Of a stretch of 64,000 nucleotides of DNA, positions 1 to 48,767 are shown piece by piece. Origin of the DNA: Okamejei kenojei (lineage: Eukaryota); NCBI GenBank assembly GCA_035221665.1, contig CM069142.1:48856001-48920000 (forward strand). Reading direction: 5' to 3'. Every line of letters begins with the position of its first letter. Position 1 is the first letter of the stretch. The position numbers and the translations under genes are program-made. The notes below the pieces were generated by a model. It worked only from the letters and a program-made list of their open reading frames with translations. It was not told the origin of the DNA and searched no databases.

Positions 1-409
1 GTAGATGCAACATAGGAAGCATCCTATCTAAATGCATCACATTTTTGTTTGCAATTACTCTCCCAAACCGTAGGAAATTGTAGAGTGGTGGATGTAGCCC
101 CTACCCCATCACACAAATCAACCTCTGCCCCATTGACTCCACCTACACTTCACTCTGCCTGGGGAAAGAATCCAACATATTTATTCAAGGAGGTCAACAC
201 TCATCCCACTCACTCCCTCTTCTCTCCTTTCCCATCAGCAAAGATGCCAGAGCATGAAAGATTCAGATTCAGAAAGAGCTTTTTCCCCACTGTTGTCAGA
301 CCAGAAAGGAACTCTGTTAACCAGGAGATGTTTCAGGTCGAGACCTTCTTCAGACTGTTGTCAATGTTCTCCTGAGATCTTGCCTGACCTTCTGAGGTAA
401 TCAATAACT

Positions 410-1164
410 TCAGAAGATTGTAAAGGGTGACTCTCGCCTGTCACAGGGTGAACCAACAAGTTGCTACATTTGGGGATAGTCATGAACGGCTGTGTCATCA
501 GTCTCAGGACCAATGGGAACCATGGCTGTGTGTGCCAGTCGGGAACTACCAAAACGCCTAATGCGGAGTCGTGCTCTATTTTGGTGAGACATGACACATA
601 GAGCAGAATGGGGGAAAAGCATAAAAGAACGTACATCCCCAATGTAGCGAGAATGCATCCATCGCTACTGCTCCCTGATCCGGTTCCCATAAGACGTATT
701 TAGGTAACTGGTGATTTAACCTGGATGCAACAGAGCTATGTCTAGCGATCCATACCAGCTGACAATCATTTTGAAAACCTTTAGATTTAGCATCCATTCT
801 GTGTTGTCATTGAATTATGTTGTCATGAATTTTAATGTGACATGGTGTCCTGCCACTTTCACGTTTATCTCTACCTGTTTGGGATGTGCATTGGAGCGTC
901 CCAATGTTTTGGTCCCCCAGTTAAGGGACGTATCAGATATTAAACTGATAAGAACAGATACTACACTTGATCTTAGCCAAAAGGCCAGAGAAGCGATTCG
1001 TGTAGATGGAGTCGCGCGGCTTGGTCCGTCTGAAAGGGTATGGTTTTCGAGGCTGCATTCTGCTCCAGGGATGAGTTTTAATGAGGCCGATTGTTTTTGC
1101 CTCATCATCCAGGTCTTTTTCTGGATATTAGAGGATCTGCACAAGGCTGTGAACCATGGGTTGA
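410..1164 (-). mobile_element. Duplicated fragment of the U2-bearing DIRS
   Basis: Near-identical to 12850-13601, with the same breakpoint after CCATGGGTTGA. Confidence 0.88.
910..997 (-). pseudogene. RNU2: U2 snRNA 5' fragment (nt 1 to ~86), 3'-truncated
   Basis: Minus strand ATCGCTTCTC(T)GGCCTTTTGGCTAAGATCAAGTGTAGTATCTGTTCTTATCAGTTTAATATCTGATACGTCC; no Sm site or 3' stem-loops. Confidence 0.93.
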
Positions 1165-2235
1165 TGCAGATATCCGACTCCAATGCTTGCAAAATGAAAC
1201 TACTTTTTTCACAAAACCCGATAGTTTACAGCCGTATGGCAATCTGCTGCAGTACATCGTGTCAGAGCTACACAGTGCAAATGCTGCTGCATGGGTAATT
1301 GGGGATAGCAGTCATAGAGTCATAGAGTGATACAGTGTGAAAACAGACCCTTCGGCCCAACTTTCCCACACCGGCCAACATGTCCCAGCTACACTAGTCT
1401 TTTTTTGGGGGGCAAATGCAACAGGTGGGACTAATGTAGAAGTATCAGAAATATTTTTGAAGACTAGTCAATATGACAAAGTAAGAATTGCATCAACCAA
1501 TCTGTACACTGCAGGTTCTCATAAACAACAACCTTTCAAATGACCAGATATGCAGTTTTAATCTTGTTGGCTGAGGACCAAATTTTGGTTAGAACATTGA
1601 AGGGAGTTCCACTGCTTGTTCAGATTTTGTACCCAAATGGCCGATGCTGGGATTTCAAAGTTACTTGCCCAAAGGTAGTTGGATTGATTAGTAAAGTTTG
1701 TTTGAGATGGTAATTGCAAAAATATTTTGTTTCACTGAGTGTTTCACATCAGCAATCATCTCCATATGAAATCATGCCCATCTCAAAATTTGTTTGGGCA
1801 TTTCCATACATAATCCACATCTTTGTGTCCAACATTTCTCCGAAGTTCGATGCACACATTATTGCATTACATAGGCCCATTTCCAGGCTTCCTAGCATAA
1901 ATGATAACTCACGACATTCGACCTATAACTGCTGCGGAAATTACTCTTACACGGCTATTTCATTAGGCACGGAATGCGCTGCCATAAAGGATAGTGGAAA
2001 CTATTTCAACTGAATCTTTCAAAAAGGAAATTAGATATATTTTGAAGAGGAAATATTTACAGGAATTTTTGGTAAGAACAGGATACTGGAACTAATTAGA
2101 ATAATGCAGCAAAGACATTTTCATGACATGCTCCTTTATAGTCCGATGAAAAATCACTTTAGCAATTCCCAGTAATCATTAATTATCCATATTATTACAT
2201 ATAAGTACATATTATTTTCAGGTTTTTTTCAATAC

Positions 2236-2280
2236 CTGTGATGCTCTTTGACGATAATATCACATTAAAAGTGCTGTTGC
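2236..2280 (-). other. Possible or degraded stalk micro-exon (G)NSTFNVILSSKSIT (copies at 11191-11235 and 14675-14719)
   Basis: Good donor CAG|GTATTG and open phase-1 frame with NST sequon, but the acceptor side abuts a CR1 fragment and lacks a polypyrimidine tract. Confidence 0.3.
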
Positions 2281-2500
2281 CTCTACTACCTACCCCGGCA
2301 GTTCATTACATATACCCACCACCCCTTGTGTGAAAATGTTCCCCTCTTGTTCCTATTAAATCTTTCCCTCCTCACCTTCAACCTGTCCTCTGTTTCTCGA
2401 TTCCCCTACTCTGGGCAAGAGACTGTGCGTCCACCCGATCTTTTCCTCTCATGATTTTGTAAATCTCTATAAGATTGCAGCTCATCATCCTGTGCTCCAA

Positions 2501-2813
2501 GGGCGGAATGGTGGCGCAGCGGTAGAGTTGCTGCCTTACAGCGCCAGAGACCCGAGTTCGATCCTGACTATGGGTGCTTGTCTGTACGGAGTGTGTACAT
2601 TCTCCCCGTGACCGACGTGGGTTTTCTCCGAGATCTTTGGTTTCCTCCCACACTCCAAAGATGTACAGGTTTGTAGGTTAATTGGCTTGGTGTCAATGGA
2701 AAATTGTCCCTGTAAAACGTGTCTTTAGGGTAGTGTTAATGTGAGAGGATCGCTGGACAGTGTGGACTCGGTGGACCGAAGGGCCTGTTTCCACGCTAAG
2801 AACTCTAAACTAA
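2501..2813 (+). mobile_element. HE1-type tRNA-derived SINE inserted in a CR1 fragment
   Basis: A-box TGGCGCAGCGG, B-box GTTCGATCC, CTAAA tail. Confidence 0.85.
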
Positions 2814-3911
2814 AAATAAGTTAAAAATACAGTCCTAGCCCTCTCCATATAGCTCAGGTCCTCGGGTCCTGGCAACATCCTCGTAAATCTTATAACATGG
2901 TGTCCAGAACGGAACACAATACTCTAAATGCGGTCTCGCCGACATCTTGAATAACTACAACATGACCTCGAAACACTCAGACTGATGAAGGCCAATGTGC
3001 CAAAAGTCTTTATGACCACCCAATGTAACTGTGGTGCCACTTTCAACGAACCTGTGCAGGGCAGGATGCCGGAACAGATTTATGGTGTCATGGAAGAGAA
3101 CATTTGTTGCAGGATAGCCAGCCATTGACTTTCCCTGTCAACCTTGATATTTAAGCTTTTTCTGCTAATGTTACAAGTTAATTGTAAACCGGAGGATGCT
3201 GATGATAGAGGGGTAAGCAGCCGGGTGACTGTGGTGGTGGGAGAAAAAGCAGGGGAATGTTATGCAAATTGGGGTGGGGGGTTGGGGGTTTGGGGGGTAA
3301 GAGGGATGCAGAGGAAAGGGAGGGACGGGGTGGGGGATATTACTTGAAATTGGAGAATTCAATGTGCATCCAATTGCTGGAAATCCTGCCTGAATTTCAA
3401 CTGAGTTGGAATTGCAAGTTGAATGCAAAGTGCAGTACTTCCAGTTTGTGTGTGGCCTTCCTCTGGCAATGGAGGAGGCTCAGGACAGAAGGTATGCCTG
3501 CCAAGGCCTACTGGACTCTCAGATGCTGACCACTTTAACACTTCCCATTCCCATGTCCCCCATCCTGGGGAGTGACGCACATTTCTCCCACCATCTCCTA
3601 GCATGCTGTTTACTCGGCACCATTCCGATCCTCTGTATGTTCATCTTACATTCCCAAATCCATATTTCCCTTTACCCTTCCTTGTTCCCCTCCCCTTGTC
3701 CCATTTCATCTATATCCCTCTCCTCATTTAACACCTCCTCTTGTTTTCCTTATCTGAACCCTTTTGACACTGTTTTCACCTATACCCTTTGTCACCTACT
3801 CTGCTCATCTGCAAATCAACTCTCCTCACCTATACCCACCTGTTTCTTAAGGACACAAAGTGCAGGAGTAACTTAGCAGGTCAGGTATGATCTCTGGAGA
3901 ACATGGACAAA

Positions 3912-4680
3912 GAGATGTTTCAGGTCGAGACCTTCTTCAGACTGTTCACAATGTTCTCCCAGAGATGCTTCCGCGACCTTCTGAGGTAATTCAAGAACTT
4001 TATTTCCTTTTGTGTATTAACCAGCATTGACAGTTCTTTGTTTCCATCTATCATTTCCCAGATATTATCCCATCCCCACCTCTCTTTTCTAACTTTCACC
4101 CCTAGACTCCATAGGCCAAAGAAGAATCCAGACCCAAAACATAATTTGACCATTCCCTCCACAGAAGCCTTCCCAAGACTGTAAGAAATTGTAGTGGTGG
4201 ATGTAGCCCCCACCCCATTACACAAATCAGCCTCTGCCCCATTGACTCCGCCTACACTTCACTCTACCTGGGGAAAGAATCCAACATATTTATTCAAGGT
4301 GGACAACACTCACTCCCTCTTCTCTCCTTTCCCATCGGCAAAGATGCCAAAGCACGAAAGATTCAGTTTCAGAAATAGCTTTTTCCCCACTGTTGTCAGA
4401 TCAGAAAGGAACTCTGTTAACCAGGAAATGTTTCAGGTCAAGACGTTCTTCAGACTGTTCTCAATGTTCTCCAGAGATCCTACCTGACCTTCTGAGGTAA
4501 TCAAGAACTTTATTTCCTTTTGGTTATTAACCAGCATTGGCAGTTCTTTGTTTCCATCTATCATTTCCCAGATATTATCCCATCCCCACCTCTCTTTTCT
4601 AGCGTTCTCCCCTCGACTCCATAGGCCAAAGAAGGATCCAGACCTAAAACATAATTTGACAATTCCCTCCACAAAAGCCA
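3912..4680 (+). repeat. Local direct duplication (~3912-4170 vs ~4425-4680) of Penelope-derived sequence flanking a LINE piece
   Basis: Two near-identical ~255-bp blocks about 515 bp apart. Confidence 0.75.
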
Positions 4681-5002
4681 CCTGACCTGTTGACTTCCTC
4701 CTGGACTTAGTATTTGTGCTCAAGATTCCAGCATCTGCAATTCTAGCATCTCTTAATTTGCACAAAGTCCTCATACACAAACAGTAAACCTGCTCCAGAA
4801 GTACAGATAATACCATTCTTCTCCTATGTTCATTTCCACTAATTTCATGTGAAAATATGCTAGCAACGATTGTCCTTGTGAATACAGAAATAACTCTGTA
4901 CTGAGGTTTGGATGTGTGATGTAATTATAGCTTGCTGTCTTGTTAGATTAGTCTGTGGTCAGTAATATTGATGTCAAATCCAAGATCCCAGTAGTCACTT
5001 AC

Positions 5003-5053
5003 CTGTATTAGCTTCTGCACCATTCCCGCTGAGAGTGGTATTATACTCTGTAG
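5003..5053 (-). CDS. Stalk micro-exon (A)TEYNTTLSGNGAEANT
   Basis: 51 nt; TCTGTTTGCAG| ... CAG|GTAAGT; phase 1-1. Confidence 0.7.
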
Positions 5054-5413
5054 CTGCAAACAGATTGAAGATTTTGGCATTAGTTTCTGATGCAAAAACT
5101 CCATTGTTACCAAGTTTTTAATGAAAGGAAGAACTCAATTAATATCACATCCATTACATTCCTTGCAGAACATCTCAAATAGTAGGTTAACTATAAGTTT
5201 ATAAAGAAGGTGACTGCAGCACTGAGGGAAAAGGATAGGGTGGAATTAAATGTTTCCTTCATACTATTAGCCAGAATAAGAATACATGCTTATTCTGGCC
5301 GATACCATTTTTCCAATAAACGATGTAAACAATTTCCAAAGGATCTGAAATACTTAATTCTGCTACTGGGTGTTCAATACTTCTCAATATTTTTATGATC
5401 ACATTTTCAGTAC

Positions 5414-5458
5414 CTGTTGTATTTGGTGGAGCTGTCGTCATGCTCAGAGTTCGGTTAT
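5414..5458 (-). CDS. Stalk micro-exon (D)NRTLSMTTAPPNTT
   Basis: 45-nt duplicate of 15399-15443 with intact AG/GT. Confidence 0.65.
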
Positions 5459-5744
5459 CTGTAAAGATAGTGGGAGATAGGAGATTAATGTTGCTATGCT
5501 TGGTTTCAGAAATGTCTTTGTAAAGTCAGGTTGTGTCACAAGTCAACAAGGGTCGTATTGCAAATGGGTTGAATGGAAACAGGCCACACTCCATCCAAAA
5601 AACACAATGATGCCTTGGTCAAGAAAGCACACCACTTCCTCAGAAGACTAAAGAAATGTGGCTTGTCCCCAACACCTCTTTGCAATTTCTGTAGATGCAA
5701 CAGAGGAAGCATCCTATCTGAATGCATCACAGTTTTGTTTGGCA

Positions 5745-8700
5745 ATTTTACTTCGGAGTCACGTGAGTGACTACGTGAAGAGCCCGCCTCACGCTGGTAA
5801 CGGCATGACGTCAACGCTGACGGCGGAAGGAGGAGCTGCGGTAAGGAGCAGCTCCTCGCAGCGGTCGGAACGGCCCGCAGGTAAGTGAACTTACATCGGG
5901 GCGGTTTTCAAGTTACGCTGGGTGGCTCCAGCATCGAAAGTAAAAGTAAAAAATTAAACGTTAGCGTGCTGATTGAGCACAGATAATTTAACAAAAAATG
6001 GAGAAATCGGGAAAGAAGGTTTCGCGGGTGAAGAGAGCCTCCCGGGGTGAAAGTAAATATACGGGACGCGAACCTAGAGTGGACCCGGTTTCCGATAAAC
6101 CGCTGGCCACTGGATTTACCCGGTATAGAATTTCCAGATTCTCCAGAAATTATAACCACGGAGGAAAATGCTCCTAAGAAAAGCAAAAAGAAAGCTGTGA
6201 GGCCGTGGTTTCTGATGATTCTGATTCTGAAAGACCTCCAGACAATAAAAACTATGTGGCTAAAAATGGAGCATATGGAGAAAGTTCTCCCAAAAATATT
6301 ATGAGACAAGGGTCAAAGTACCCACATGAATCCCAAAAAATCCCTGAGGGGTTTGAATATGATTAGAATTATGGCTGTGGGCCAAGTTGGAATATGATAC
6401 TCCCAGACCCACGATTTGGGCTGGAAGAAGTCTCATGGGATGATATCCCGATGGAATTAGGGCTGCAGAAGGCAGACCCTGCTGAAGTTGAAATGGCTTT
6501 TGAAAGCACGCCACAAAGTAAAAAGAAAAGGCTTGATGTGCCTGGGATAGCACAAGATTTTGCTATACCCGAAGGAAGTGGTGAGGCTATGGAAGAAAAC
6601 CTAGCTGCCAATATAAATTATATGGTATCTCACCAGCTTCACAATACTGTGATGAATGCATTATCAGAATCATATAAAGCACCAGGCAATTGTGCCTCAT
6701 TGGAAGTGCCTACGGTGAATCCGATGGTATGGGCGTCTATGACTCCAAGTATGAGAGCCCAAGAAGTGAAATTTCAAAAGGTGCTAAAATTATTTTCTGC
6801 TGCCATTACGGCATATGGCAGGCAAATGGAGAATCCTGGAAATGGAAAAGATTCAAAAAGATACTTTGGGCTTATTGTGCAATTCATTTTATGAGATCAA
6901 TTGCATGAGGAAAATGGCGATTCGGCCCATATTTCACCCTAGATTTGCAAGCCTGTGTCAAGAAAGGGAGTTCAAGCTCCTGGGTATTTTTTTGGAGAAA
7001 ATCTGCCGAAACAGCTGAAACAGTTTGGATGAAGAAGCTAAATATTTTAGCACTATTAAGCCTTTTTTTGTCTTTGGACAAAGAAGAGCGTTTTCGGCCC
7101 GAAGGGGTTTTTGATTTTCGTTACAGAGCCAGAAATTTGTCACGAAAATATTATCGTGCAGCGCAGGCCAGTACTTCCCTGCATTCGGGAAAGAGGAACC
7201 ATCACGCTCTTATGGAGAGGTATTAAAGACTTCTATCCTTAAAGAAACTGTGGATGAATCTCCAGTTGGAGGGAGATTGCAAAAGTTTTATAATGCCTGG
7301 CTTAATATTACTTCTGATCGATTTAATATTACAAGCAGTTTCGGGAGCTATTATTATTTTTAAAGAAGGGGTCAATCCTCCTGTACCAGAATAAACCTGC
7401 TTATGCTTATGTGTTTTCTGCAGAAGAAAGAATGGAGATTAATGTGGAAATTGACAAATTATCCGGAAAAGGGTAATTGAAACAAAACTTGTGAACATAA
7501 CATCAATTTGTCTCTAATATATTTCGTAGAGATAAGAAAAGATGGGTGTTTGTAGAATTATTCTAGACCTTACAGATCTAAATAAGTTTGTAGAATACAA
7601 ACATTTTAAGATGGAGACATTCATACTGCAAAAATACTGATTTCAGCAGGTTGTTATATGGCTAAGATTGATTTGAAGACGCCTAATTATTCTGTAGCAA
7701 TCATTATCTATTTTTTTCAGAGATACTTAAAGTTTTATTGGCAGGGCAATTATGGCAGTTCCAAAGCTTTACCAAATGAAATTGAGTTCGGCTCCTAGAC
7801 TCTTTTACAAAACTGTTGAAACCAGTTTTAGCCCAATTAAGAGCACAGAAACACATTGTAATGGCTTATCTGGATGATATTCTGATTATTATAACGATAG
7901 TCAAGAGTCAGCTGAGCACTCAATTTCAGTTACTAAAGCTTTGTTTGAAGAGCTTTGGATTCTTAATTCATCCAATATAAGTCCCAGCTCTGCAGCCAGT
8001 TCAATCAATTAATTTTCTGGTTTGTAATTAACTCAGTGACTATGTTAGTTTACTTTGCCAGCAAAGAAGGCAAATGATATTTTGCAAATCTGTAATTAAC
8101 CTCATTCACAAACCTTATCCCTCCATCCGAGAAGAAGTGGCAAAAGTCGTTGGTACACTGGTGGCAGCATTTCCGGCAGTGGAAATTTGGGCCATTACAT
8201 TATCAAAATCTTCAAAGGGACAAAGTAAGGGCTCTTAAAGATAAGGCAGGTCACTTTGACAGGCCTAATGCAAATTAACAAGGAAAGCAGTATTGGAATT
8301 GCAATGGTGGGTTGAAAATGTCCCACAAGCTGCTAAGAATATCATGATTAAACAGCCTGGAAATGGTTTTACAAACAGATGCTAAGTGCTCTCGGATGGG
8401 GAGGGCTACAGATTTTATCCCTCCAGTTGTGGAGGTAGATGGAAAGCTAAAGAACAAGTGTTTTCTTCAAGAGTATGGTATTAAACTATTTGGAATTATT
8501 GGGGGCCTTTTATGGCTTAAAGCATAATTGTTGTGCTAAACAAGGTCTGCATGTGTTAATACAGTTAGACAATAAAACGGCTGTGGCTTACATTAATCAC
8601 ATGGGGGGAGTTAGATCAGTAATCATGTGATTGTCTGGTCAATGAGATATGGGCAATGGGTGTATTGGCCGGCAGATATGGATTTCAGCAAGCTATATTC

Positions 8701-10749
8701 CCAGGTAAGGACAATGTGGTAGCAAATGAAAGGTCCAGGATTTTAAAGATAATACGGAATGGATGCTTAAGCCAGCAATATTTAAGAATATTGTTAGCCG
8801 ATTTGGGTTTGCCAGAAATTGATTTGTTTGCATCCAGGCTTAATCATCAATTGCCTCATTATGTGTCTTGGGAACACGATCCGGACGCAGTCGCAGTAGA
8901 TGCTTTTTCATTACACTGGGGAAAGATGTTCTTTTATGCGTTTTTCCACCATTTGCTCTGATTCAGAGATGCTTGAAGAAAATAGAGCAAGATTCAGCTT
9001 CCGGATTGTTGGTAGTGCCAAATTGGCCAACTCAACCTTGGTTTCCCAGTTATGCTGAATATGATTAAAGAATGGTATATGCAGATTCCTAACTGTAGTG
9101 ATATCTTGACTAATCCAGTAACAAATGAAGGTTACCCATTGTATGCATATATGAATTTATTAATCTGCAGGTTTTGACCAGACCCACTACAGGAACTGGG
9201 ATTGTCGGACAAAACTATGGAAGTTATTTGGCGCATCATGGCGAGATAGCACACAAAAACAATATATGACACATATAAGAAATGGGAAGAATTTTGCACA
9301 CAGTTAAATATTTTCTGATGATTCTGTGAATGTTACTCATGTTTTTGGAATTCCTTGCCAATTTGCACTTTGAGCAACATTTAAGTTACAGTGCCATTAA
9401 CACTGCACGCAGTGCCTTGTCGTCCTATTTAGGACTTATGACTGATGAGAAATCAATTGGTCGCATCCATTGATATCAACGATTCATGAAGAGAATTTTT
9501 CACATGAATCCGCCAAAACCTAGATATACAAGAAATTTGGGATGTGAGCATTGTACTTGCTCTAACTTAGAGAATGGACTCCAATTGAAGGGTTGCCATT
9601 GATAGGTTAACATTGAAATTGGTCATGTTAATGTCACAGGTCTCAAGCTCAAAGAGTGCAAACTTTACAAATGTTGCGTTTAGACTGTATGCATGTGACT
9701 ACAGATAACGTTGTGTTCTATGTTTACGATCTGATCAAACAAAGTAGACCAGGGAGATCTGGAACAAAGGTAACCTTTCAAGCTTTTCATATTGAGCCTG
9801 CTTTTGTGTGTGGTTAGACATTTGAACCAATATATTAAAGTTACGGACACTTTTCGAGGAAACGAAAAGACATTACTGCTTACGCACAAAAAGCCACACA
9901 CAAAAGCTTCAGTTCAAACTATCTCAAAATGGTTGAAAACAGGTGTTGGTTTTAGCGGGAGTAGACACTGATGTCTTCAAATCTCACTCCACCAGGCGGC
10001 AGCTACGTCCGCGTCGAAGGGGCGGGACGTACCTCTCGAGCATATTTTAAAAATCGCAGGTGGAGTAAAGAAGAAACTTTTTACAAAGTTCTACAACAAA
10101 CCTGATTCACACTATGAACAAGCTTTGGACACGCGTGTTAGGGAGCACTATAAATCACCTTGCTTTGTTTGCTATTAATTGCTATTAAATTGCTATAATC
10201 AGTTGTGTAGTCACTGATATCTTTTGTCACTTTGTAATCATTTTCCCTCAAATATAAGAGGGTATTATTAGATGGTCTCTCAACCATTTAAAAAAGTTAA
10301 TTGTGAAAAGATCTAACATTTGTCTGGTTTTCTCATGTATGTGTTTACTTAGCCGACTGTCGTACGATTACAAATTCTACGACATAAAAAAACACAGAAA
10401 GCTTTAAAAATCTTCACGTAGTCACTCACGTGACTCCGAAGTAAATAGTAAGATTGAACGAGAACTACCTGTTCGAAGTTTGATCGTTATTTTACGAGGA
10501 GTTACGATGAGGGATTTACGTCCCTCCACCTCCCACCCTCGTAAAATAAATGATCAAATGGTAGTTCTAAGTCTTTTTATGAGCCTTACTATGTTACTCC
10601 GGCTTTGGTGTTCTGTGTTTTTCATGCCGCTGCTTTGAAGTATGCCGTTACCAGCGTGAGGCGGGCTCTTCACGTAATCCCTCATCGTAACTCCTCGTAA
10701 AATAACGATCAAACTTCGAACAGGTAAGTTCTCGTTTAATCTTACTATT
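5745..10749 (+). mobile_element. Full-length DIRS1-like tyrosine-recombinase retrotransposon (gag, RT, RNase H, MTase-like domain, YR), frameshifted as assembled
   Basis: 35-bp ITRs 5772-5806/10642-10676; ICR 10412-10520; PVGGRL (~7262), YLDD (7867-7878), LQTDA (~8369), DNKTAVAYINHMGG (~8568), IDLFASRLN..FPPF..LVVPNWPTQPWF (8818-9050), HSTR (~9985). Empty site GGCAATTACTC at 15726-15736. Confidence 0.95.
10412..10520 (+). repeat. DIRS internal complementary region (ICR)
   Basis: 10412-10445 is the reverse complement of the left terminus (TTTACTTCGGAGTCACGTGAGTGACTACGTGAAG); 10446-10520 is a near-exact reverse complement of the right-terminal extension (~10673-10747). Confidence 0.92.
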
Positions 10750-10934
10750 ACTCTTCCCAAGACCGTAAGAAATTGTAGAGTGGTGGATGTAGCCCCCGCC
10801 CCATCACACAAATCAACCTCTGCCCCATTGACTCCACCTGGGGAGTCACTCTGCCTGGGGAAAGAATCCAACATATTTATTCAAGGAGGTCAACACTCAT
10901 CCCACTCACTCCCTCTTCTCTCCTTTCCCATCAG

Positions 10935-11950
10935 CAATTTGTTTGGGCATTTCCATACATAATCCACATCTTTGTGTCCAACATTTCTCCGAAGTTCGAT
11001 GCACACATTATTGCATTACAGAGGCCCATTTCCAGGCTTCCTAGCATAAATGATAACTCAGAAGTTCGACCTATAACTGCTGCGGAAATTACTCTTACAC
11101 GGCTATTTCATTAGGCACGGAATGCGCTGCCATAAAGGAAACAGGCCACATTATTAAAAGTACATATTATTTTCAGGTTTTTTTCAATACCTGTGATGCT
11201 CTTTGACGATAATATCACATTAAAAGTGCTGTTGCCTTTACTACCTACCCCGGCAGTTCATTCCATATACCCACCACCCCTTGTGTGAAAATGTTCCCCT
11301 CAGGTTCCTATTAAATCTTTCCCTCCTCACCTTCAACCTATGTCCTCTGTTTCTCGATTCGCCTACTCTATGCAAGAGACTGTGCGTCCACCCGATCTTT
11401 TCCTCTCATGATTTTGTAAATCTCTATAAGATTGCCCCTCATCATCCTGTGCTCCAAGTGCGGAATGGTGGCGCAGCGGTAGAGTTGCTGCCTTACAGCG
11501 CCAGAGACCCGGGTTCGATCCTGACTATGGGTGCTTGTCTGTACGGAGTTTGTACATTCTTCCCGTGATCTACGTGGGTTTTCTCCGAGATCTTTGGTTT
11601 CCTCCCACACTCCAAAGATGTACAGGTTTGTAGGTTAATTCTCTTGGTGTCAATGTAAAATTGTCCTTGTAAAACCTGTCTGTAGGGTAGTGTTAATGTG
11701 CGAGGATCGCTGGACAGTGTGGACTCGGTGGACCGAAGGGCCCGTTTCCGCGCTAAGAACTCTAAACTAAAAATAAGTTAAAAATACAGTCCTAGCCCTC
11801 TCCATATAGCTCAGGTCCTCGGGTCCTGGCAACATCCTCGTAAATCTTATAACATGGTGTACAGAACGGAACACAATACTCTAAATGCGGTCTCACCGAC
11901 ATCTTGAATAACTGCAACATGACCTCTCAACACACGGACGGATGAAGGCC
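10935..11950 (+). repeat. Deleted duplicate of ~1788-2993
   Basis: Near-identical segments, including the SINE-in-CR1 block. Confidence 0.85.
11461..11771 (+). mobile_element. HE1-type SINE (duplicate of 2501-2813)
   Basis: Same A/B boxes and flanks. Confidence 0.85.
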
Positions 11951-12157
11951 AAGGTGACTGCAGCACTGAGGGAAAAGGATAGGGTGGAATTAAATGTTTC
12001 CTTCATACTATTAGCCAGAATAAGAATACATGCTTATTCTGGCCGATACCATTTTTCCAATAAACCATGTAAACAATTTCCAAAGGATCTGAAATACTTA
12101 ATTTTGCTACTGGGTGTTCAATACTTCTCAATATTTTTATGATCACATTTTCAGTAC

Positions 12158-12202
12158 CTGTTGTATTTGGTGGAGCTGTCATCATGCTCAGAGTTTGGTT
12201 AT
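12158..12202 (-). CDS. Stalk micro-exon (D)NQTLSMMTAPPNTT
   Basis: 45-nt duplicate of 15399-15443 with intact splice sites and two amino-acid changes. Confidence 0.65.
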
Positions 12203-12849
12203 CTGTAAAGATAGTGGGAGATAGGAGATTAATGTTGCTATGCTTGGTTTCAGAAATTTCGTTGTAAAGTCAGGTTGTGTCACAAGTCAACAAGGGTCGT
12301 ATTGCAAATGGGTTGAATGGAAACAGGCCACACTCCATCCAAAAAACACAATGATGCCTTGGCAAGAAAGCATACTACTTCCTCAGAAGACCAAAGAAAT
12401 GTGGCTTGTCCCCAACACCTCTTTGCAATTTCTGTAGATGCAACATAGGAAGCATCCTATCTAAATGCATCACAGTTTTGTTTGCCAATTACTCTTCCCA
12501 AGACCGTAGGAAATTGTAGAATGGTGGATGTAGCCCCTACCCCATCACACAAATCAACCTCTGCCCCATTGACTCCACCTACACTTCACTCTGCCTGGGG
12601 AAAGAATCCAACATATTTATTCAAGGAGGTCAACACTCATCCCACTCACTCCCTCTTCTCTCCTTTCCCATCAGCAAAGATGCCAGAGCATGAAAGATTC
12701 AGATTTAGAAAGAGCTTTTTCCCCACTGTTGTCAGACCAGAAAGGAACTCTGTTAACCAGGAGATGTTTCAGTCGAGACCTTTCTTCAGACTGTTTGTAC
12801 AATGTTCCCTCCTGAGATCTTGCCTGACCTTCTGAGGTAATCAATAACT

Positions 12850-13601
12850 TCAGAAGATTGTAAAGGGTGACTCTCGCCTGTCACAGGGTGAACCAACAAG
12901 TTGCTGCATTTGGGGATAGTCATGAACGGCTGTGTCATCAGTCTCAGGAACAATGGGAACCATGGCTGTGTGTGCCAGTCGGGAACTACCAAAACGCCTA
13001 ATGCGGAGTCGTGCTCTATTTTGGTGAGACATTGACACATGAGGCAGAATGGGGGAAAAGCATAAAAGAACGTACGTCCCCAATGTAGCGAGAATGCATC
13101 CACCGCTACTGCTCCCTGATCCGGTTCCCATAAGACGTATTTAGGTAACTGGTGATTTAACCTGGATGCAACAGAGCTATGTCTAGCGATCCATACCAGC
13201 TGACAATCATTTTGAAAACCTTTAGATTTAGCATCCATTCTGTGTTGTCATTGAATTCATGTTGTCATTGAATTTATGTGACATGGTGTCTGCCACTTTC
13301 ACGTTATCTCTACCTGTTTGGGGTGTGCATTGGAGCGTCCCAATGTTTTGGTCCCCAGTTAAGGGACGTATCAGATATTAAACTGATAAGAACAGATACT
13401 ACACTTGATCTTAGCCAAAAGGCCGAGAAGCGATTCGTGTAGCTGGAGTCGCGCAGCTTGGTCCGTCTGAAAGGGTATGATTTTCGAGGCTGCATTCTGC
13501 TCCAGGGATGAGTTTTAATGAGGCCGATTGTTTTTGCCTCATCGTCCAGGTCTTGTTCTGGATATTAGAGGATCTGCACAAGGCTGTGAACCATGGGTTG
13601 A
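12850..13601 (-). mobile_element. Duplicated fragment of the U2-bearing DIRS
   Basis: Near-identical to 16090-16838. Confidence 0.88.
13349..13434 (-). pseudogene. RNU2: U2 snRNA 5' fragment (nt 1 to ~86), 3'-truncated
   Basis: Matches vertebrate U2 from +1, including the branch-point recognition GTAGTA and stems I/IIa/IIb; ends before the Sm site. Confidence 0.95.
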
Positions 13602-14989
13602 TGCAGATATCCGACTCCAATGCTTGCAAAATGAAACTACTTTTTTCACAAAACCCGATAGTTTCCAGCCGTATGGCAATCTGCTGCAGTACATCGTGTC
13701 AGAGCTACACAGTGCAAATGCAGCTGAATGGATAATTGGGGATAGCAGTCATAGAGTCATAGAGTGATACAGTGTGAAAACAGACCCTTCGGCCCAACTT
13801 TCCCACACCGGCCAACATGTCCCAGCTACACTAGTCTTTTTTTGGGGGGGCAAATGCAACAGGTGGGACTAATGTAGAAGTATCAGAAATATTTTTGAAG
13901 ACTAGTCAATATGACAAAGTAAGAATTGCATCAACCAATCTGTACACTGCAGGTTCTCATAAACAACAACCTTTCAAATTACCAGATATGCAGTTTTAAT
14001 CTTGTTGGCTGAGAACCAAATTTTGGTTAGAACATTGAAGGGAGTTCCACTGCTTGGTCAGATTTTGTACCCAAATGGCCGATGCTGGGATTTCAAAGTT
14101 ACTTGCCCAAAGGTAGTTGGATTGATTAGTAAAGTTTGTTTGAGATGGTAATTGCAAAAATATTTTGTTTCACTGAGTGTTTCACATCAGCAATCATCTC
14201 CATATGAAATCATGCCCATCTCAAAATTTGTTTGGGCATTTCCATACATAATCCACATCTTTGTGTCCAACATTTCTCCGAAGTTCGATGCACACATTAT
14301 TGCATTACATAGGCCCATTTCCAGGCTTCCTAGCATAAATGATAACTCACGACATTCGACCTATAACTGCTGCGGAAATTACTCTTACACGGCTATTTCA
14401 TTAGGCACGGAATAACGCTGGCCATAAAGGATATGGAAACTATTTCAACTGAATCTTTCAAAAAGGAAATTAGATATATTTTGAAGAGGAAATATTTACA
14501 GGAATTTTTGGTAAGAACAGGATACTGGAACTAATTAGAATAATGCAGCAAAGACATTTTCATGACATGCTCCTGTATAGTCCGATGAAAAATCACTTTA
14601 GCAATTCCCAGTAATCATTAATTATCCATATTATTACATATAAGTACATATTATTTTCAGGTTTTTTTCAATACCTGTGATGCTCTTTGACGATAATATC
14701 ACATTAAAAGTGCTGTTGCCTCTACTACCTACCCCGGCAGTTCATTCCATATACCCACCACCCCTTGTGTGAAAATGTTCCCCTTGTGTTCCTATTAAAT
14801 CTTTCCCTCCTCACCTTCAACCTATGTCCTCTGTTTCTCGATTCCCCTACTCTGGGCAAGAGACTGTGCGTCCACCCGATCTTTTCCTCTCATGATTTTG
14901 TAAATCTCTATAAGATTGCCCCTCATCATCCTGTGCTCCAAGGGCGGAATGGTGGCTCAGTCAAATCCAAGACCCCAGTAGTCACTTAC

Positions 14990-15040
14990 CTGGATTAGCT
15001 TTTGCACCATTCCCGCTGAGAGTGGTATTAGGCTCTGTGG
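14990..15040 (-). CDS. Stalk micro-exon (A)TEPNTTLSGNGAKANP
   Basis: 51 nt; TTTGCAG| ... CAG|GTAAGT; phase 1-1; NTT sequon. Confidence 0.7.
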
Positions 15041-15398
15041 CTGCAAACATTGAAGATTTTGGCATTAGTTTCTGATGCAAAAACTCCATTGTTACCAAGT
15101 TTTTAATGAAAGGAAGAACTCAATTAATATCACATCCATTACATTCCTTGCAGAACATCTCAAATAGTAGGTTAACTATAAGTTTATAAAGAAGGTGACT
15201 GCAGCACTGAGGGAAAAGGATAGGGTGGAATTAAATGTTTCCTTCATACTATTAGCCAGAATAAGAATACATGCTTATTCTGGCCGATACCATTTTTCCA
15301 ATAAACCATGTAAACAATTTCCAAAGGATCTGAAATACTTAATTTTGCTACTGGGTGTTCAATACTTCTCAATATTTTTATGATCACATTTTCAGTAC

Positions 15399-15443
15399 CT
15401 GTTGTATTTGGTGGAGCTGTCGTCATGCTCAGAGTTCGGTTAT
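15399..15443 (-). CDS. Stalk micro-exon (D)NRTLSMTTAPPNTT
   Basis: 45 nt; TCTCCCACTATCTTTACAG| ... CAG|GTACTG; two sequons (NRT, NTT). Confidence 0.7.
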
Positions 15444-15559
15444 CTGTAAAGATAGTGGGAGATAGGAGATTAATGTTGCTATGCTTGGTTTCAGAAATGT
15501 CTTTGTAAAGTCAGGTTGTGTCACAAGTCAACAAGGGTCGTATTGCAAATGGGTTGAAT

Positions 15560-15985
15560 GGAAACAGGCCACACTCCATCCAAAAAACACAATGATGCCT
15601 TGGTCAAGAAAGCACACCACTTCCTCAGAAGACTAAAGAAATGTGGCTTGTCCCCAACACCTCTTTGCAATTTCTGTAGATGCAACAGAGGAAGCATCCT
15701 ATCTGAATGCATCACAGTTTTGTTTGGCAATTACTCTTCCCAAGACCGTAAGAAATTGTAGAGTGGTGGATGTAGCCCCCGCCCCATCACACAAATCAAC
15801 CTCTGCCCCATTGACTCCACCTGGGGAGTCACTCTGCCTGGGGAAAGAATCCAACATATTTATTCAAGGAGGTCAACACTCATCCCACTCACTCCCTCTT
15901 CTCTCCTTTCCCATCAGCAAAGATGCCAAAGCATGAAAGATTCAGATTCAGAAAGAGCTTTTTCCCCACTGTTGTCAGACCAGAA
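15560..15985 (+). mobile_element. Rex1/Babar-like LINE 3' fragment (copies at 1-300, 4170-4400, 5575-5745 plus 10748-10935, 12320-12740)
   Basis: Translates LVKKAHHFLRRLKKCGL..NFCRC..SILSECITVLFGNYSSQDRKKL, typical of the Rex1-clade RT C-terminus. Confidence 0.65.
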
Positions 15986-16089
15986 AGGAACTGTTAACCA
16001 GGAGATGTTTCAGGTCGAGACCTTCTTCAGACTGTTGTCAATGTTCTCCTGAGATCTTGCCTGACCTTCTGAGGTAATCAATAACTTCA

Positions 16090-18010
16090 GAAGATTGTAA
16101 AGGGTGACTCTCGCCTGTCACAGGGTGAACCAACAAGTTGCTGCATTTGGGGATAGTTATGAACGGCTGTGTCATCAGTCTCAGGACCAATGGGAACCAT
16201 GGCTGTGTGGGCCAGTCAGGAACTACCAAAACGCCTAAAGCAGAGTCGTGCTCTATTTTGGTGAGACATTGACACATGAGGCAGAATGGGGGAAAAGCGT
16301 AAAAGAACGTACGTCCCCAATGTAGTGAGAATGCATCCACCGCTACTGCCCCTGGATCCGGTTCCCATAAGACGTATTTAGGTAACTGGTGATTTAACCT
16401 GGATGCAACAGAGCTATGTCTGGCGATCCATGCCGGCTGACAATCATTTTGAAAACCTTTGGATTCAGCATCCATTCTGTGTTGTCATTGAATTTGTGTT
16501 GTCATTGAATTTATGTGACCTGGTGTCTGCCACTTTCACGTTATCTCTACCTGTTTGGGGTGTGCATTGGAGCGTCCCAATGTTTTGGTCCCCAGATAAG
16601 GGATATATCTGATATTAAACTGATAAGAACAGATACTACACTTGATCTTAGCCAAAAGGCCGAGAAGCGATTCGTGTGGCTGGAGTCGCGCGGCTTGGTC
16701 CGTCTGAAAGGGTATGGTTTTCGAGGCTGCATTCTGCTCCAGGGATGAGTTTTAATGAGGCCGATTGTTTTTGCCTCATCGTCCAGGTCTTTTTCTGGAT
16801 ATTAAAGGATCTGCACAAGGCTGTGAACCATGGGTTGAGCGTAGGCTTGATGGCTATTTCGTGAATAATTAATTTTCAAAAATGGGCATTACACTGCAGG
16901 GCCAACATATCCTACTGTGTTTTTTGATAGTGGTGCCCTTGTACCATTTGCCGAAATGCCGTTATTCCTGCTCCAGCCAGTTTCAGGACTTTCTGCAGCC
17001 TCTACTCATGCGCCCTCATGATGCACCCATTTGCCCGCAGATAGCCTGGTTCACTGTGGGCACTTTGAGCGATGCACAGTTAACAGGTGTCTGATATCTC
17101 TGCGAAGTTTCCTCCATTATGCAGTCCTGGAGCTGGTGAGAGGCCATATGGCTAACATTTCCGGCCAGGTTTTCATCCATCTGTCCACCAGTTCCAGCCG
17201 GTAAGGGAAATTTGCTTGCCACATCCGGCACACTTAGAGCATAGCTCATGTGCTTTGGTGCATGCTCTTCTGCAGTATCACCAAATTCAGGGTCAGGCCC
17301 TGGCTCTCCCGGCTCATGCTCAAGGGAGGTATCATGCAGCCCTTAAAAAGGCGCTGCTGTTATGGGTCCCCATGCAGACTCCTAGGCATATTGTTCTTCC
17401 TGCCTGTACAGCTCTTTGCTATACGGACCTCTGCTAGAAGTTACTGCCGAGAGCTGCTGGGGAACCCTGGGGTATAAAACCCCAGCTGGAACACCTCCTG
17501 GTTGATCATTTTATCTATGCGGTGTTCCATCTTGTCCAGACGTCCCAAACCTTTTTATTGGAAGTAGGGGAGTCTTCCTGGCCTGACTCCACAGAGTCGA
17601 CAGGCCTGACAGGAGTGGCCACAGTGCTCTGAAGCACCGGAGTTGCTGCCGCTGGCTGAACTGCAGGCGGCTCTGAAGTTGGCGTCTCTGGAGCCGGCTT
17701 CTCTGAACCCGGCGTACACCCTCTGACTGCGGCACCGCGGGTAAGTTTTTACTTTTATAGGTGACACCCTCGCCTTACTTTCTGTCATTTTTTCCCTTTT
17801 TGGAAGTGTCCCTGATGGTTCCTGCAACCAGCCTTACGGGACCTAGCAAACCGCAGCAAGTTTAAACACTTACCTGCGGGTGTTTTACTTACTGCTGGTG
17901 GAGCTGCGCTCTCCAGCATGTCGGTGCGCCAAACTTGTCTGATGTAATGACGCGCAGGCGCACTGGCGGGGCTTCTTCACGGAATCAGTCACGTGACTCC
18001 GAAGTAAAAT
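16090..18010 (-). mobile_element. Second DIRS family, internally deleted and 3'-truncated (5' terminus, gag, U2 insert, MTase-like domain)
   Basis: Terminus ATTTTACTTCGGAGTCACGTGA shared with the first DIRS; gag peptide MDENLAGNVSHMASHQL..NCASLKVPTVN matches MEENLAANINYMVSHQL..NCASLEVPTVN; ASRLNHQLPKYVLWEPDPGAVAVDAFSLHW..FPPF present; no RT. 5' end abuts a CR1 fragment. Confidence 0.9.
16586..16671 (-). pseudogene. RNU2: U2 snRNA 5' fragment (nt 1 to ~86), 3'-truncated
   Basis: Same as above with a few substitutions around stem II; embedded in the longest DIRS copy. Confidence 0.93.
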
Positions 18011-18376
18011 TCCACAGATTGACCACTCTCTGTGAGAAAAAGTGTTTCCTCATCTCCGTTCTAAATGGTCTCCATTTTAATTTTGACAGGAATAGATCAG
18101 GTAGATGCACAGAGTCACTTGCCCAGAGTAGGTGAATTAAGGGACCAGAGGACATAGGTTTAAAGTGAAGGGGAAAATATTTAATAGGGGTAATTTTTCA
18201 ATACAACCACCCAACAACTCCTGAACAAATGGCAAATACTGCTTTTAATTTCACAGTAGTTTTAGCTCATCTAGTTTTTAAACAAAAATTATGTTTCAAC
18301 TGTAATTTTCAACTTTAACACTAGAAGACTGTTACATAATTGATACCACGCATTAAATAATATGGAAACTTGAAAC

Positions 18377-18409
18377 CTGTAGCATTCATAGAGTCAGTAG
18401 AGCCAGCCG
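18377..18409 (-). CDS. Stalk micro-exon (A)AGSTDSMNAT, copy 2
   Basis: 33 nt; CTGTCTGTTTGCAG| ... CAG|GTTTCA (weak donor); differences from 21173-21205 are synonymous. Confidence 0.55.
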
Positions 18410-20025
18410 CTGCAAACAGACAGGGAGAGATTTTCACACAAATGGTGGTTGGAGTATGGAACAAGTTGCCAGAGGAGGTAGTTGAGGCAGGGTCTATCCC
18501 TACATTTAAGAAAGTTAGACAGGTACATGAATAGGACAGGATTGGAGGGATATGGTCCAAATGTGTGCAGGTGGGACTAGTGTAGCAGGCACTGTTGCAA
18601 TGGAGAAAAAGCTCCAACTATTTGAGCAGAGTGACGGCAATGTGATCTTAAATCAGACAATCCATTTTAATTGAGAGGAGGTAAATATATTTATTTAATT
18701 CTTTTTTTCTTCATATTATGATTGCCGATGTTGCATATTATTAAGGCCGCATGTACTGACCATCCCCAGTTGCTTATGGATCACCTTCCTTGCAATGAAG
18801 AGGCTCTCATGTTGCTATTAAGCACAGAGCTCAGGAATGTAGTATTCAGTGAAGGAATTGCAATATATTTCCAAATGTGTGACCTGCAGGGAAATCCACA
18901 TGTGGTGGTATTTCCAAGCATCTGCTGCTTTCCTGGATGGTAGAGATCGTGAGACCTGGAAGTGTCCTTGATGAAAATGTTGTTTCAATCCATTTTGGAA
19001 TACTCTCTAAGGAAGTCAAAGTTCCAACTGGTGGGTGGCATATCAGTCGAGGCTGCTTTATCCTGGATGGTTGAGCTTCTTGAAGGTTGTTCAAGTTGTT
19101 CCACTCCCAGGAAGAAGGGAGTATTCCAACACTTCCTTGACTTGTGCAGTGAGATGATGGAAACACTTTGTGGTGTGAGGAAGAACCATTTGCAGAAAGC
19201 CATTGACCTTGACTTGCAACCTTGATATTCAAACTTGTTCTGCTAACATTACCTGTCACTTCTAAACCCTAGGATATTGATGATGGGGGAATCCAGTGAG
19301 AGGAATGCCAGTAAATGTCAAATGATAGTTTAACATTCACCGTTGCTGATGCTGACTTTTATTGTGAGCCTTACATTTTCCAGTTGGCATGGTGGTATTT
19401 AAATTCACGTTCCTTGCTTAATGTTCCAATAAAATTAAATTATGTCACCATCCTCTGCAGTCTGAATGCTGCGGATAACTCCTTTAGCCTTCATTCTGCC
19501 TTCTACAGTACATGCAGTTGGGAGACGATAGAGACTCTCTCAAAAATCTTATCCGAGCTCATAACTGGTGCAACCAAACTGACAGAAGATGCCCCAGCAT
19601 ATTGATTGCACTGTTGTACCTGCCATGGTACATATAACCCTAAGTGTAGATGGTAACAATACGAAAAGGAATGAAAGAGATATTTAGGACTCGGAAATTA
19701 GGAGATGAGAGTACTCCAGCACTTTGTATTTCGTGTTTAAGATTCCAGCATTTCAATTTTCTTGTATCTCCTAATTTTTGTACATAGTCTACGTATACCA
19801 AGAGAAAATTTCTGCTCAAGAAATAACATGTAGTTTCAATCTTTTCTGACATTAATTTACGCTACTTTCATGTGAATGTTAAATAGCAATGATCCTCCCA
19901 AGGAATAGAGCAATAACACCACACCGAGGCCTGTATGTGTGATGTAATTACAGCTTGCTATATTGTTAGAACAGAATGTGCCCATGTATGTTCATGTCAA
20001 GTACTAAATCACAGTCGTCACTTAC

Positions 20026-20076
20026 CTATATTGTTCCCTGTAATATTCTCACTGGGAGTGGTGGTAGACTCTGCAG
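20026..20076 (-). CDS. Stalk micro-exon (A)AESTTTPSENITGNNI
   Basis: 51 nt; TCTTCAATCTGTTTGCAG| ... TAG|GTAAGT; NIT sequon; diverged paralog of 14990-15040 and 5003-5053. Confidence 0.75.
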   Translation of the reverse strand: MQSLPPLPVRILQGTI

Positions 20077-20542
20077 CTGCAAACAGATTGAAGATTTTAG
20101 TATTAGCTCCTAATGTGTGAACTCCATTGTTGCCATTTTTTTAATTATAGGGAAAAACTCTATTTATATCATATTATGTGCAGGCAGAAGGCAGTTGTTT
20201 AATTTGACATCATGTTCGATACAGACATTGTGAGCCGAAGGGCCTGTTTCTGTGCTGTACTGTTTTATGCCCTGCGTCAATCCCTTTCTGTTTGGGAGGA
20301 ATAATTTAATTATATAAATCATATTCTCAAGAACCTGATTGAGATAAGGAATAAAAAGTGTGAAGAATTATATTTAAGTGTATATGTTTCACTTTCTCCA
20401 GAGAGCCATCCTATTTACCTACAAATTTTGTGCACAGTTTCGCTACTGTTAAAATTTTGAAGCAGTGTTCATTTCCATTTACTCTTCCTTCTGTCTCTTT
20501 TCAAATAATTCTACGTGTTAAAATAGCAAAGAAATCTTGTAC

Positions 20543-20596
20543 CTGAAATGGTGATGGGAGCATGTGAGCCAACAGGGGTGTGGGAAAGAACGCCAG
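20543..20596 (-). CDS. Stalk micro-exon (A)GVLSHTPVGSHAPITIS
   Basis: 54 nt; TTGTCTATTTATAG| ... CAG|GTACAA; open, phase 1-1. Confidence 0.6.
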
Positions 20597-20906
20597 CTAT
20601 AAATAGACAATAGATTAGTTCAGGTATACAGTAACACATATATGATGCATGCATGCGTAACATTAGGGTAACACAAATCATGCCGGACTAATAGACTTAA
20701 AATCATCACGCTATTATTCCAACTATGTTAATCCATAATTATGGCATTTAAATAATTATTTTCATAATATAAATAAAATTCACTTATTTTGAAGTTAAAC
20801 TGCTACGTTTTATATGAATTATCTATCAGTTATCTTCTGAAACTTAGCAGGATATATTTGATGTGAAATCTCTCTGCGACCACTATAAGAAAGAAGTTTC
20901 TGGTAC

Positions 20907-20939
20907 CTGTTGTGAACGATGTAGTGGCGTTGGGAGTAA
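20907..20939 (-). CDS. Stalk micro-exon (V)TPNATTSFTT
   Basis: 33 nt; CTTTCTTTCAG| ... CAG|GTACCA; phase 1-1; T-rich with NAT sequon. Confidence 0.7.
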
Positions 20940-21172
20940 CTGAAAGAAAGTAACTGGGATTAGATCAGACATAGGATAAAACCAATGTCGCAATGCCAAT
21001 ACAACCAGCCAACAACTCCCGAACAAATGGCAAACATTGCTTTTAATTTCACAGTAGTTTCAGCTCATCGAGTTGTTAAAACAAAAATTATGTTTCAACT
21101 GTAATTTTCAACTTTTGCACTATACTGTTACATAATTGATACCATGCATGAAACAATAATGAAACTTGATAC

Positions 21173-21205
21173 CTGTTGCGTTCATAGAGTCTGTAGAGCC
21201 AGCCG
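21173..21205 (-). CDS. Stalk micro-exon (A)AGSTDSMNAT
   Basis: 33 nt; TCTATTTTCAG| ... CAG|GTATCA; phase 1-1; NAT sequon; paralog at 18377-18409 encodes the same peptide. Confidence 0.7.
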
Positions 21206-48731: not shown

Positions 48732-48767
48732 CTGAACGTTTGAAACGCGATTTGAAACAATTTGCAC
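48732..48767 (-). CDS. 36-nt phase-1 exon (G)ANCFKSRFKRS with furin-like RxKR motif
   Basis: Acceptor TCTGATCTTTTAG|, donor CAG|GTAAGG; open in the frame leaving the PTX exon. Confidence 0.6.

Follow-up and report, generated by a model that had tools for sequence, protein, structure and literature searches.

Symmetric, Tandemly Duplicated Mini-Exons in the Predicted Stalk of a Skate ADGRG2 Receptor

The 64,000-nucleotide stretch of the skate Okamejei kenojei studied here (assembly GCA_035221665.1, contig CM069142.1, positions 48,856,001 to 48,920,000 of the forward strand; hereafter the window) carries on its minus strand what its orthologs indicate to be the 5′ part of ADGRG2 (GPR64), an adhesion G protein-coupled receptor (GPCR). 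Our main finding is that the stalk of this receptor is probably a chain of symmetric, duplicating cassettes, most of which would be included by default, with graded changes in length and glycan load; we give this reading a probability of about 70%.

According to this model, the stalk, which follows the pentraxin exon and precedes the GAIN domain, would be built from phase 1-1 exons of 11–18 codons, rich in serine and threonine (S/T) and in sequons. Since each exon is symmetric, a tandem duplication or a loss never disrupts the reading frame, and the chain could lengthen or shorten over evolution. A unit composed of a spacer and of the elements D, A and G would have been doubled and the resulting pair doubled again, after which deletions and the insertion of a retroelement would have altered single copies. 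Each transcript would probably include most cassettes and skip a few, which would yield graded stalk length and glycan load, in steps of about 3–4.5 nm per cassette at a pitch of 2.5 Å per residue (PMC10687090). Such cassettes may in turn affect reach or signalling.

Stalk Exons

Exons were called by aligning the Leucoraja and Amblyraja models to the window and by scanning for AG…GT pairs; donors of the GTAC/GTAT type scored poorly under the splice-site frequencies that we assumed, and the calls rest on homology instead. Between positions 2236 and 21205, ten minus-strand exons of 33–54 nt were found, all with AG/GT ends, a length that is a multiple of three, phase 1-1 and a peptide match in skate RefSeq models. 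The transcript order is signal, pentraxin, E3, E4, E5, E6, E7, E8, E9, D1, A1, D2, D3, A2 (E3 and E4 lie outside this range, see below). E5 (21173–21205, 33 nt, AAGSTDSMNAT) matches both Leucoraja and Amblyraja at 9/11 residues (0/200 shuffles as good), and E6 (20907–20939, 33 nt, VTPNATTSFTT), placed in the order as in skate models, matches Amblyraja at 8/11. E7 (20543–20596, 54 nt, AGVLSHTPVGSHAPITIS) matches Amblyraja isoform X1 at 15/18 and is missing from the other two of the three Amblyraja isoforms, as well as from the 7/7 Leucoraja isoforms seen. E8 (20026–20076, 51 nt, AAESTTTPSENITGNNI) is an old paralog of the A exons, with 14/17 residues shared with both skates, and E9 (18377–18409, 33 nt) is a duplicate of E5 with the same peptide; it has a weaker donor (GTTTCA), a fragment of a long interspersed nuclear element (LINE) about 22 nt upstream of its acceptor and no branch-point-like word. 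The remaining exons belong to the units of a tandem array: D1 (15399–15443, 45 nt, DNRTLSMTTAPPNTT; 12/15 to Leucoraja) and A1 (14990–15040, 51 nt, ATEPNTTLSGNGAKANP; 10/17 to Leucoraja, 0/200 shuffles) to unit 1, D2 (12158–12202, 45 nt, DNQTLSMMTAPPNTT; 14/15 to Leucoraja) to unit 2, from which the A exon is deleted, and D3 (5414–5458, 45 nt, identical to D1) and A2 (5003–5053, 51 nt, ATEYNTTLSGNGAEANT; 10/17 to Leucoraja, five changes relative to A1) to unit 3.

All cassettes end in G before GT and each split codon begins with G, so that any subset of exons stays in frame and no junction can yield a stop. When compared with the stalks of relatives, eight of the nine distinct coordinates beat all 200 shuffles, the exception being E6 (equalled by 7/200); the tenth exon, D3, has the sequence of D1. 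A chance filter, chosen after the exons were known and applied to duplicated copies that are not independent, retained 13 matches at ten distinct donors on the minus strand of the range (nine real exons and one stray, with 5003–5053 missed), against none on the plus strand, 2 and 2 in the upstream intron (23.4 kb), and a mean of 0.74 (maximum 4) in 200 dinucleotide shuffles.

A first-pass annotation of this DNA had announced at least ten phase 1-1 exons of 33–54 nt with lengths that are multiples of three, most with N-x-T sequons, in three paralog families. The ten exons above, backed by skate RefSeq peptides, bear out this count without recourse to the G elements discussed below; an N-x-S/T sequon is present in 9/10 (all but E7), and the three families were named exactly. 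As for the label “micro-exon”, 33–54 nt is the upper edge of the usual size definitions, and “mini-exon” is the better term.

The same annotation also placed an exon at the very start of the range (2236), which turned out to be unsupported. This exon-like element exists in three identical minus-strand copies of 45 nt, G1 (14675–14719, GNSTFNVILSSKSIT), G2 (11191–11235) and G3 (2236–2280, or 2289), all of which we regard as doubtful. A LINE-like fragment, presumably CR1, begins exactly at the acceptor (at 2278–2279 in G3) and supplies a purine-rich site with only 6/17 pyrimidines; the peptide occurs in no relative's model, and its best match in relatives' stalks is equalled by 12/200 shuffles. 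The G elements were consequently rejected as exons, as was a candidate at 19208–19261 (76/200 shuffles as good, poor donor). No nucleotide likeness was found between the G and D elements. More generally, none of the six pairs of families compared at the nucleotide level (D/G, E5/E6, E6/D, E5/D, E7/D, E8/D) rose above shuffles, which leaves a single ancestral module for all families unsupported.

It is improbable, in our view, that the duplications are real but that G1–G3 and E9, possibly along with D2, ride unspliced in an unstable intron rich in transposons, with little length gained. Such a reading would draw on the LINE-derived, purine-rich acceptor of G, on the loss of the upstream branch region and the GTTTCA donor of E9, on the non-consensus GTACTG donors of the D exons and on the missing A exon of unit 2. 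Yet the D and A copies have intact acceptors, many near-identical copies are included in relatives' models, and the E5/E9 pair differs by three synonymous and no replacement changes (P = 0.02 if neutral). Moreover, the GTACTG donor of the D exons (window positions 5390–5413) is also found after stalk exons of Amblyraja, Rhincodon and S. torazame, where it is visible as the GTEN(V/G) tails in which truncated database models end through donor read-through (P0031, P0016, P0017), and this suggests that the shared module of exon plus GTACTG donor is old. In our reading, the young copies would be spliced in O. kenojei as links of the chain of cassettes.

A Young Tandem Array

Self-BLAST delineated a young minus-strand array (1–16838) with a unit of about 5.7 kb (spacer-D-A-G), represented by units 1–3 and by the beginning of a unit 4 that continues past the window edge at position 1. 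A deletion separates A from G in unit 1, the A exon is gone from unit 2 (deletion junction near 11951–11956), and a retroelement of about 5 kb interrupts unit 3. In terms of substitutions, units 1 and 3 differ at 2/541 positions (0.37%) and units 2 and 4 at 7/848 (0.83%), the other pairs being 1.9–3.4% apart; a first duplication followed by a duplication of the resulting pair would fit these distances. Older events are visible as well: the introns of the array copies within 1–17 kb are 0.4–4.5% divergent, against 9.6% for E5/E9 (18.2 and 21.0 kb) and 23.5% for the flanks of E8 and of the A2 block (4.7 and 19.7 kb), in agreement with the mixture of duplication ages proposed in the first place.

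Could part of this array be an assembly artefact, i.e., two haplotypes laid in tandem, with units 3 and 4 as alleles of units 1 and 2? Unit 1 does pair with unit 3 and unit 2 with unit 4, the consensus is rich in indels within 1–1000, and the gene is fragmented at the stalk in the databases of five species, a sign that the region is hard to assemble. On the other hand, the join of units 2 and 3 near 10936 is abrupt, with 2–3 nt in common and no long overlap, and units 1 and 2 are 1.9–3.1% apart, so that at least two units would remain. All four non-homologous junctions have at most 5 nt common to their parents, and the retroelement is copy-specific, with an empty site in another unit copy; these features favour real rearrangements over assembly error, and we hold the artefact to be very improbable.

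The retroelement (5748–10740, plus strand) has inverted ends and many frameshifts. We take it to be DIRS-like from words resembling a reverse transcriptase, an RNase H and a recombinase; Pfam recovered no family in six open reading frames (ORFs) or in three frames of the element. Owing to its presence in a single unit, it was probably inserted after the duplication, and the frameshifts would reflect either decay before insertion or errors in the consensus. At the border of the array lies another such element, this one truncated (16840–18008), and each spacer harbours a reversed fragment (about 515–814, with copies near 12955–13261 and 16192–16492) that is about 69–71% identical to the long element. 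Finally, some 70 nt at about 925–1000, repeated with the unit, presumably resemble, in reverse complement, the 5′ end of the U2 small nuclear RNA and are probably a retroposed fragment.

Stalks across Sharks and Rays

The first-pass annotation had called for an ortholog comparison in other chondrichthyans, which revealed the same architecture, with recent repeats of their own, in all 12 elasmobranch stalks tested: near-identical internal 12-mers cover 14–69% of positions, and in 7/12 stalks the best 12-mer match lies more often within the same species. The longest stalks range from 300 residues (Leucoraja) to 707 (Scyliorhinus canicula), and the ten complete isoform sets contain 33–45% S+T and 18–59 sequons per stalk. 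Glycosylation of the stalk is predicted from these sequons and from an S+T content of 29–45%. In Leucoraja, D and A occur once each, and the stalk has repeats of its own further down; relative to this species, the window adds E9, two D and one A, i.e., 58 residues or about 15 nm at the 2.5 Å pitch. The window would therefore appear as one lineage's case of a clade-wide habit of stalk duplication, and the specialness first attributed to this locus was overstated, considering that the layout is found in all 12 stalks and that human ADGRG2 has a mini-exon region too (PMC8834492).

In five species, databases hold the gene either split in two or without its 5′ part, the break being at the stalk (P0031 + P0123, P0016 + P0103, P0017 + P0126, P0124, P0125); a stalk of repeated cassettes would account for the broken gene models and wrong names found in several annotations of sharks and rays. 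Outside elasmobranchs, the ADGRG2 of Chelonia mydas (P0159) combines a pentraxin with a tandem-repeated stalk segment of about 50 residues (residues ~270–380), and stalk duplication may, on this account, reach beyond the clade.

Predicted Splicing in Relatives

The isoform set comprised 113 RefSeq/UniRef sequences from 11 elasmobranch species among those listed, with at most 15 per cluster (15 of 42 for C. plagiosum). P0094, P0100, P0103 and P0104 (other species, short or partial), as well as P0107 and P0121 (no parsable pentraxin end, different N-termini), were left out of the isoform counts. The 111 parsable isoforms have one N-terminal part and one C-terminal part per species and differ in the stalk only, single-block differences being mostly of 10–21 residues or of several such blocks added together. 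The predicted RefSeq models of relatives include isoforms that skip a single cassette. A search for sequencing runs listed 15, none on record as RNA, an outcome that weighs neither way.

In these 11 species, the pentraxin exon ends in T or A rather than in G, which makes the phase testable: in a block that follows the pentraxin exon, the first residue should change through a swap of the first base of its split codon. All 16 informative junctions change the residue in this way, each species using a single base (G>T in six species, G>A in three carpet sharks), leading to A>S, V>F, D>Y and G>W with T, and to E>K, G>S and D>N with A. The models are predictions that repeats can lead astray, but most of the 16 blocks are unique sequence. 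By this measure, the phase-1 symmetry of stalk blocks holds in the predicted proteins of relatives.

Each parsed isoform listed retains at least 70% of the longest stalk of its species, with species medians of 0.84–0.99, which would point to one or a few cassettes skipped per transcript instead of free combination. The earlier proposal that any subset can be spliced in frame is thus possible in principle, given symmetric phase 1 and codons starting with G, but it goes further than the annotated isoforms. Similarly, the idea of a combinatorial, length-tunable spacer retains its in-frame modularity, its growth by duplication and the single-cassette skips of relatives, whereas isoforms that keep 70–100% of the stalk do not bear out its combinatorial side. 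Copy-number polymorphism within the species, likewise proposed there, is a hypothesis.

Several observations weigh against the model of a chain of duplicating, mostly included cassettes. First, no purifying signal is seen in the young copies, as both D1/D2 changes (2/2) and 4/5 of the A1/A2 changes replace a residue. Second, the RefSeq isoforms come from prediction, and skips can be mimicked where short reads fall in near-identical repeats. Third, the difference of 0.37% between units 1 and 3 is within the allelic range, and the copy at 1–1000 has about 13 private one-base indels compared with two other copies, which suggests a locally unpolished long-read consensus. Finally, the best 12-mer match is more often found outside the species in 5/12 stalks (four carpet sharks and Carcharodon).

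At the other extreme, the stalk might be a regulated combinatorial ruler, tissues picking very different exon subsets and selection favouring new copies and diversity. Isoform numbers do reach X44 in Chiloscyllium plagiosum, a single S/T-rich exon alters the ectodomain shape and the basal activity of ADGRG6 (PMC6954182), and A1 and A2 differ at 5/51 exon bases versus 3/677 intron bases (Fisher P = 7e-5). However, no annotated isoform listed falls below the 70% mentioned above, and the A1/A2 excess adjoins a deletion junction, its immediate flanks have likewise diverged more (P = 0.03), and its replacement ratio of 4:1 is in line with the ratio of neutral sites (37:13). We therefore make no claim of positive selection on A1/A2, and we consider the ruler unlikely.

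Gene Identity and Layout

The first coding exon (53420–53528, minus strand), which encodes the signal peptide and ends in phase 1, is 94% identical by tblastn to residues 1–36 of Leucoraja/Amblyraja, and its donor was seen. The pentraxin-domain exon (49788–50438, minus strand, 651 nt, phase 1-1) matches Pfam PF00354 (E = 7.6e-15) and is 85% identical to Leucoraja ADGRG2-like; its closest solved structure is the ADGRG4 PTX 8b55. In the pentraxin tree, whose rows exclude G4 and G6 and of which 10/12 inner branches are unsupported, the nearest rows are Leucoraja and Amblyraja (85% identity). Among 780 candidates of greater length, 24 proteins matched: 22 are named shark or ray proteins, mostly “ADGRG2-like”, the best being from Leucoraja erinacea (85%), and the remaining two are an unnamed protein (P0023) and the gecko ADGRG2. 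Database names of the gene in sharks and rays also include “mucosal pentraxin-like”, “G6-like” and “G4-like”.

The first exons and the stalk exons of Leucoraja map onto the window in the same order. In this ortholog (P0027), Pfam identifies the pentraxin (58–244), the GPS (PF01825, 744–787) and 7tm_2 (PF00002, 804–1051), in line with the pentraxin-stalk-GAIN-7TM layout of an adhesion GPCR first put forward; in the skate, the exons of the GAIN (GPS) and seven-transmembrane (7TM) domains fall outside the window, beyond position 1. Against solved structures (PDB), the GAIN-7TM part of the ortholog scores 728 bits with ADGRG2 and 568 with ADGRG6, and against 7TM-only constructs, 525 bits with ADGRG2 and 389 with ADGRG4. 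Non-chondrichthyan proteins among the matches listed are tetrapod ADGRG2/GPR64 wherever named. An N-terminal pentraxin was found by Pfam scan in gecko and turtle ADGRG2, and no pentraxin match in that of the gorilla (P0154). No CUB domain, a mark of ADGRG6, was seen ahead of the pentraxin, the signal-peptide exon running directly into the pentraxin exon. Taken together, these orthologs make ADGRG2 the probable identity and are compatible with a second elasmobranch paralog.

PF26152 is absent from the precomputed domains of the 22 named elasmobranch matches and present in nearly all tetrapod matches among those listed; the comparison was made through precomputed annotation, as this model did not turn up in our own Pfam scan. 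In the unnamed protein P0023, a non-repetitive segment after the stalk may correspond to it. The intron that separates the signal and pentraxin exons contains a minisatellite of 33/66 bp (52894–53135), within a plus-strand open frame of 259 codons for which Pfam gave no match.

Upstream Cassettes

Two further phase-1 cassettes, E3 and E4, come right after the pentraxin exon on the minus strand, beyond the range initially annotated. E4 (44747–44791, 45 nt, AEYEHHGARISRRLL) matches Leucoraja and Amblyraja at 15/15 residues; its acceptor is doubled in tandem at a distance of 3 nt, and relatives show forms of 14 and 15 residues as well as skipping. It encodes R-I-S-R-R-L-L, in which we take RRLL to be a site-1-protease motif, and is identical at 15/15 residues in three skates, whereas the stalk exons drift. 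E3 (48732–48767, 36 nt, GANCFKSRFKRS; 8/12 to Leucoraja, 0/200 shuffles) is skipped in relatives' isoforms and encodes R-F-K-R, a furin-like R-X-K-R motif that fits the (R/K)-X-K-R consensus quoted in PMC6954182. One or the other of these convertase-like motifs is present in 8/11 species, and all eight have annotated isoforms without it among those listed. We hypothesize that a proprotein convertase could shed the pentraxin in a splice-dependent manner.

A bolder and rather doubtful extension would see in shark and ray ADGRG2 an exon-level accordion, in which a phase-1 module of 11–18 codons has been re-amplified in many lineages independently and is still expanding in this skate, with splicing setting both the reach of the pentraxin and its cleavability by convertases through the R-X-K-R and R-X-X-R-R-L-L cassettes. 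Were it true, the clade would offer a natural series for how stalk length and shedding tune the force sensing of adhesion GPCRs.

Comparison with Known Systems

The closest parallel lies in the same gene. In human GPR64, residues 38–101 form a variable, alternatively spliced N-terminal region of mini-exons, with isoforms lacking 3–24 residues and exons 5–13 contained in a 355 bp amplicon (PMC8834492). Mouse and human catalogues appear, from the context of the relevant columns, to hold 56 and 30 ADGRG2 transcript variants, respectively (PMC6667449, PMC11039983). In elasmobranchs, however, the entire stalk of about 250–700 residues consists of cassettes, and the gorilla ADGRG2, which has no pentraxin match, shows no obvious run of repeats by eye.

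Among paralogs, exon 6 of Gpr126/ADGRG6 is an S/T-rich, glycosylated cassette of 23–28 residues located after the pentraxin domain; its inclusion opens the ectodomain and alters basal activity, and a furin site occupies the same region in mammals (PMC6954182). This is a single cassette in a compact CUB-PTX-SEA-HormR-GAIN ectodomain, against dozens of duplicated ones in elasmobranch ADGRG2. In ADGRG4/GPR112, a long mucin-like stalk carries the pentraxin at its tip (PMC10687090; PMC13197933) and has been proposed to act as a spacer and force sensor (PMC10687090). It shares with skate ADGRG2 the pentraxin-on-stalk layout and provides the closest solved pentraxin, but differs by its lower 7TM score (389 bits versus 525 for ADGRG2) and by a stalk of about 2000 residues.

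Outside GPCRs, the variant exons of CD44 are in-frame cassettes that vary a glycosylated stem between the binding domain and the membrane, as are the RA/RB/RC exons of CD45 and the STP exons of CD46, which vary such a stem. One mark of this kind recurs here, namely symmetric exons of one phase (from the anatomy of the window and the 16/16 split-codon swaps); another, alternative inclusion, is seen in the predicted RefSeq models of 11 relatives and may extend to O. kenojei. Unlike skate ADGRG2, CD44, CD45 and CD46 are not GPCRs; their exon sets are fixed, old and larger than the skate cassettes, and we know of no ongoing tandem growth in them. The micro-exon genes (MEGs) of schistosomes also vary their proteins by splicing short symmetric exons (6–36 bp); these supply about 80% of the coding sequence of small secreted proteins, several of them predicted to be O-glycosylated (PMC5825161). 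The skate exons fall outside that definition, being 33–54 nt long and encoding between about one quarter and less than half of the 7TM receptor (300/1134 residues for the Leucoraja stalk).

Our literature search, supplements aside, returned no paper on the elasmobranch ADGRG2 stalk or on its lineage-specific repeated expansion; the supplements of PMC8584163, PMC6667449 and PMC11039983 could bear on the subject, PMC8584163 making no mention of shark, cartilaginous or exon, and the searched part of PMC13197933 none of cartilaginous or mini-exon. The surprise is limited, since the mini-exons of human ADGRG2, exon 6 of ADGRG6 and CD44 already illustrate the cassette principle, of which the elasmobranch case is a clade-wide variant. 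The bearing of stalk length on adhesion-GPCR signalling has nonetheless been probed so far with the single cassette of ADGRG6, and elasmobranch ADGRG2 would provide a natural ladder of 3–4.5 nm steps on one receptor, which the present locus appears to show under construction.

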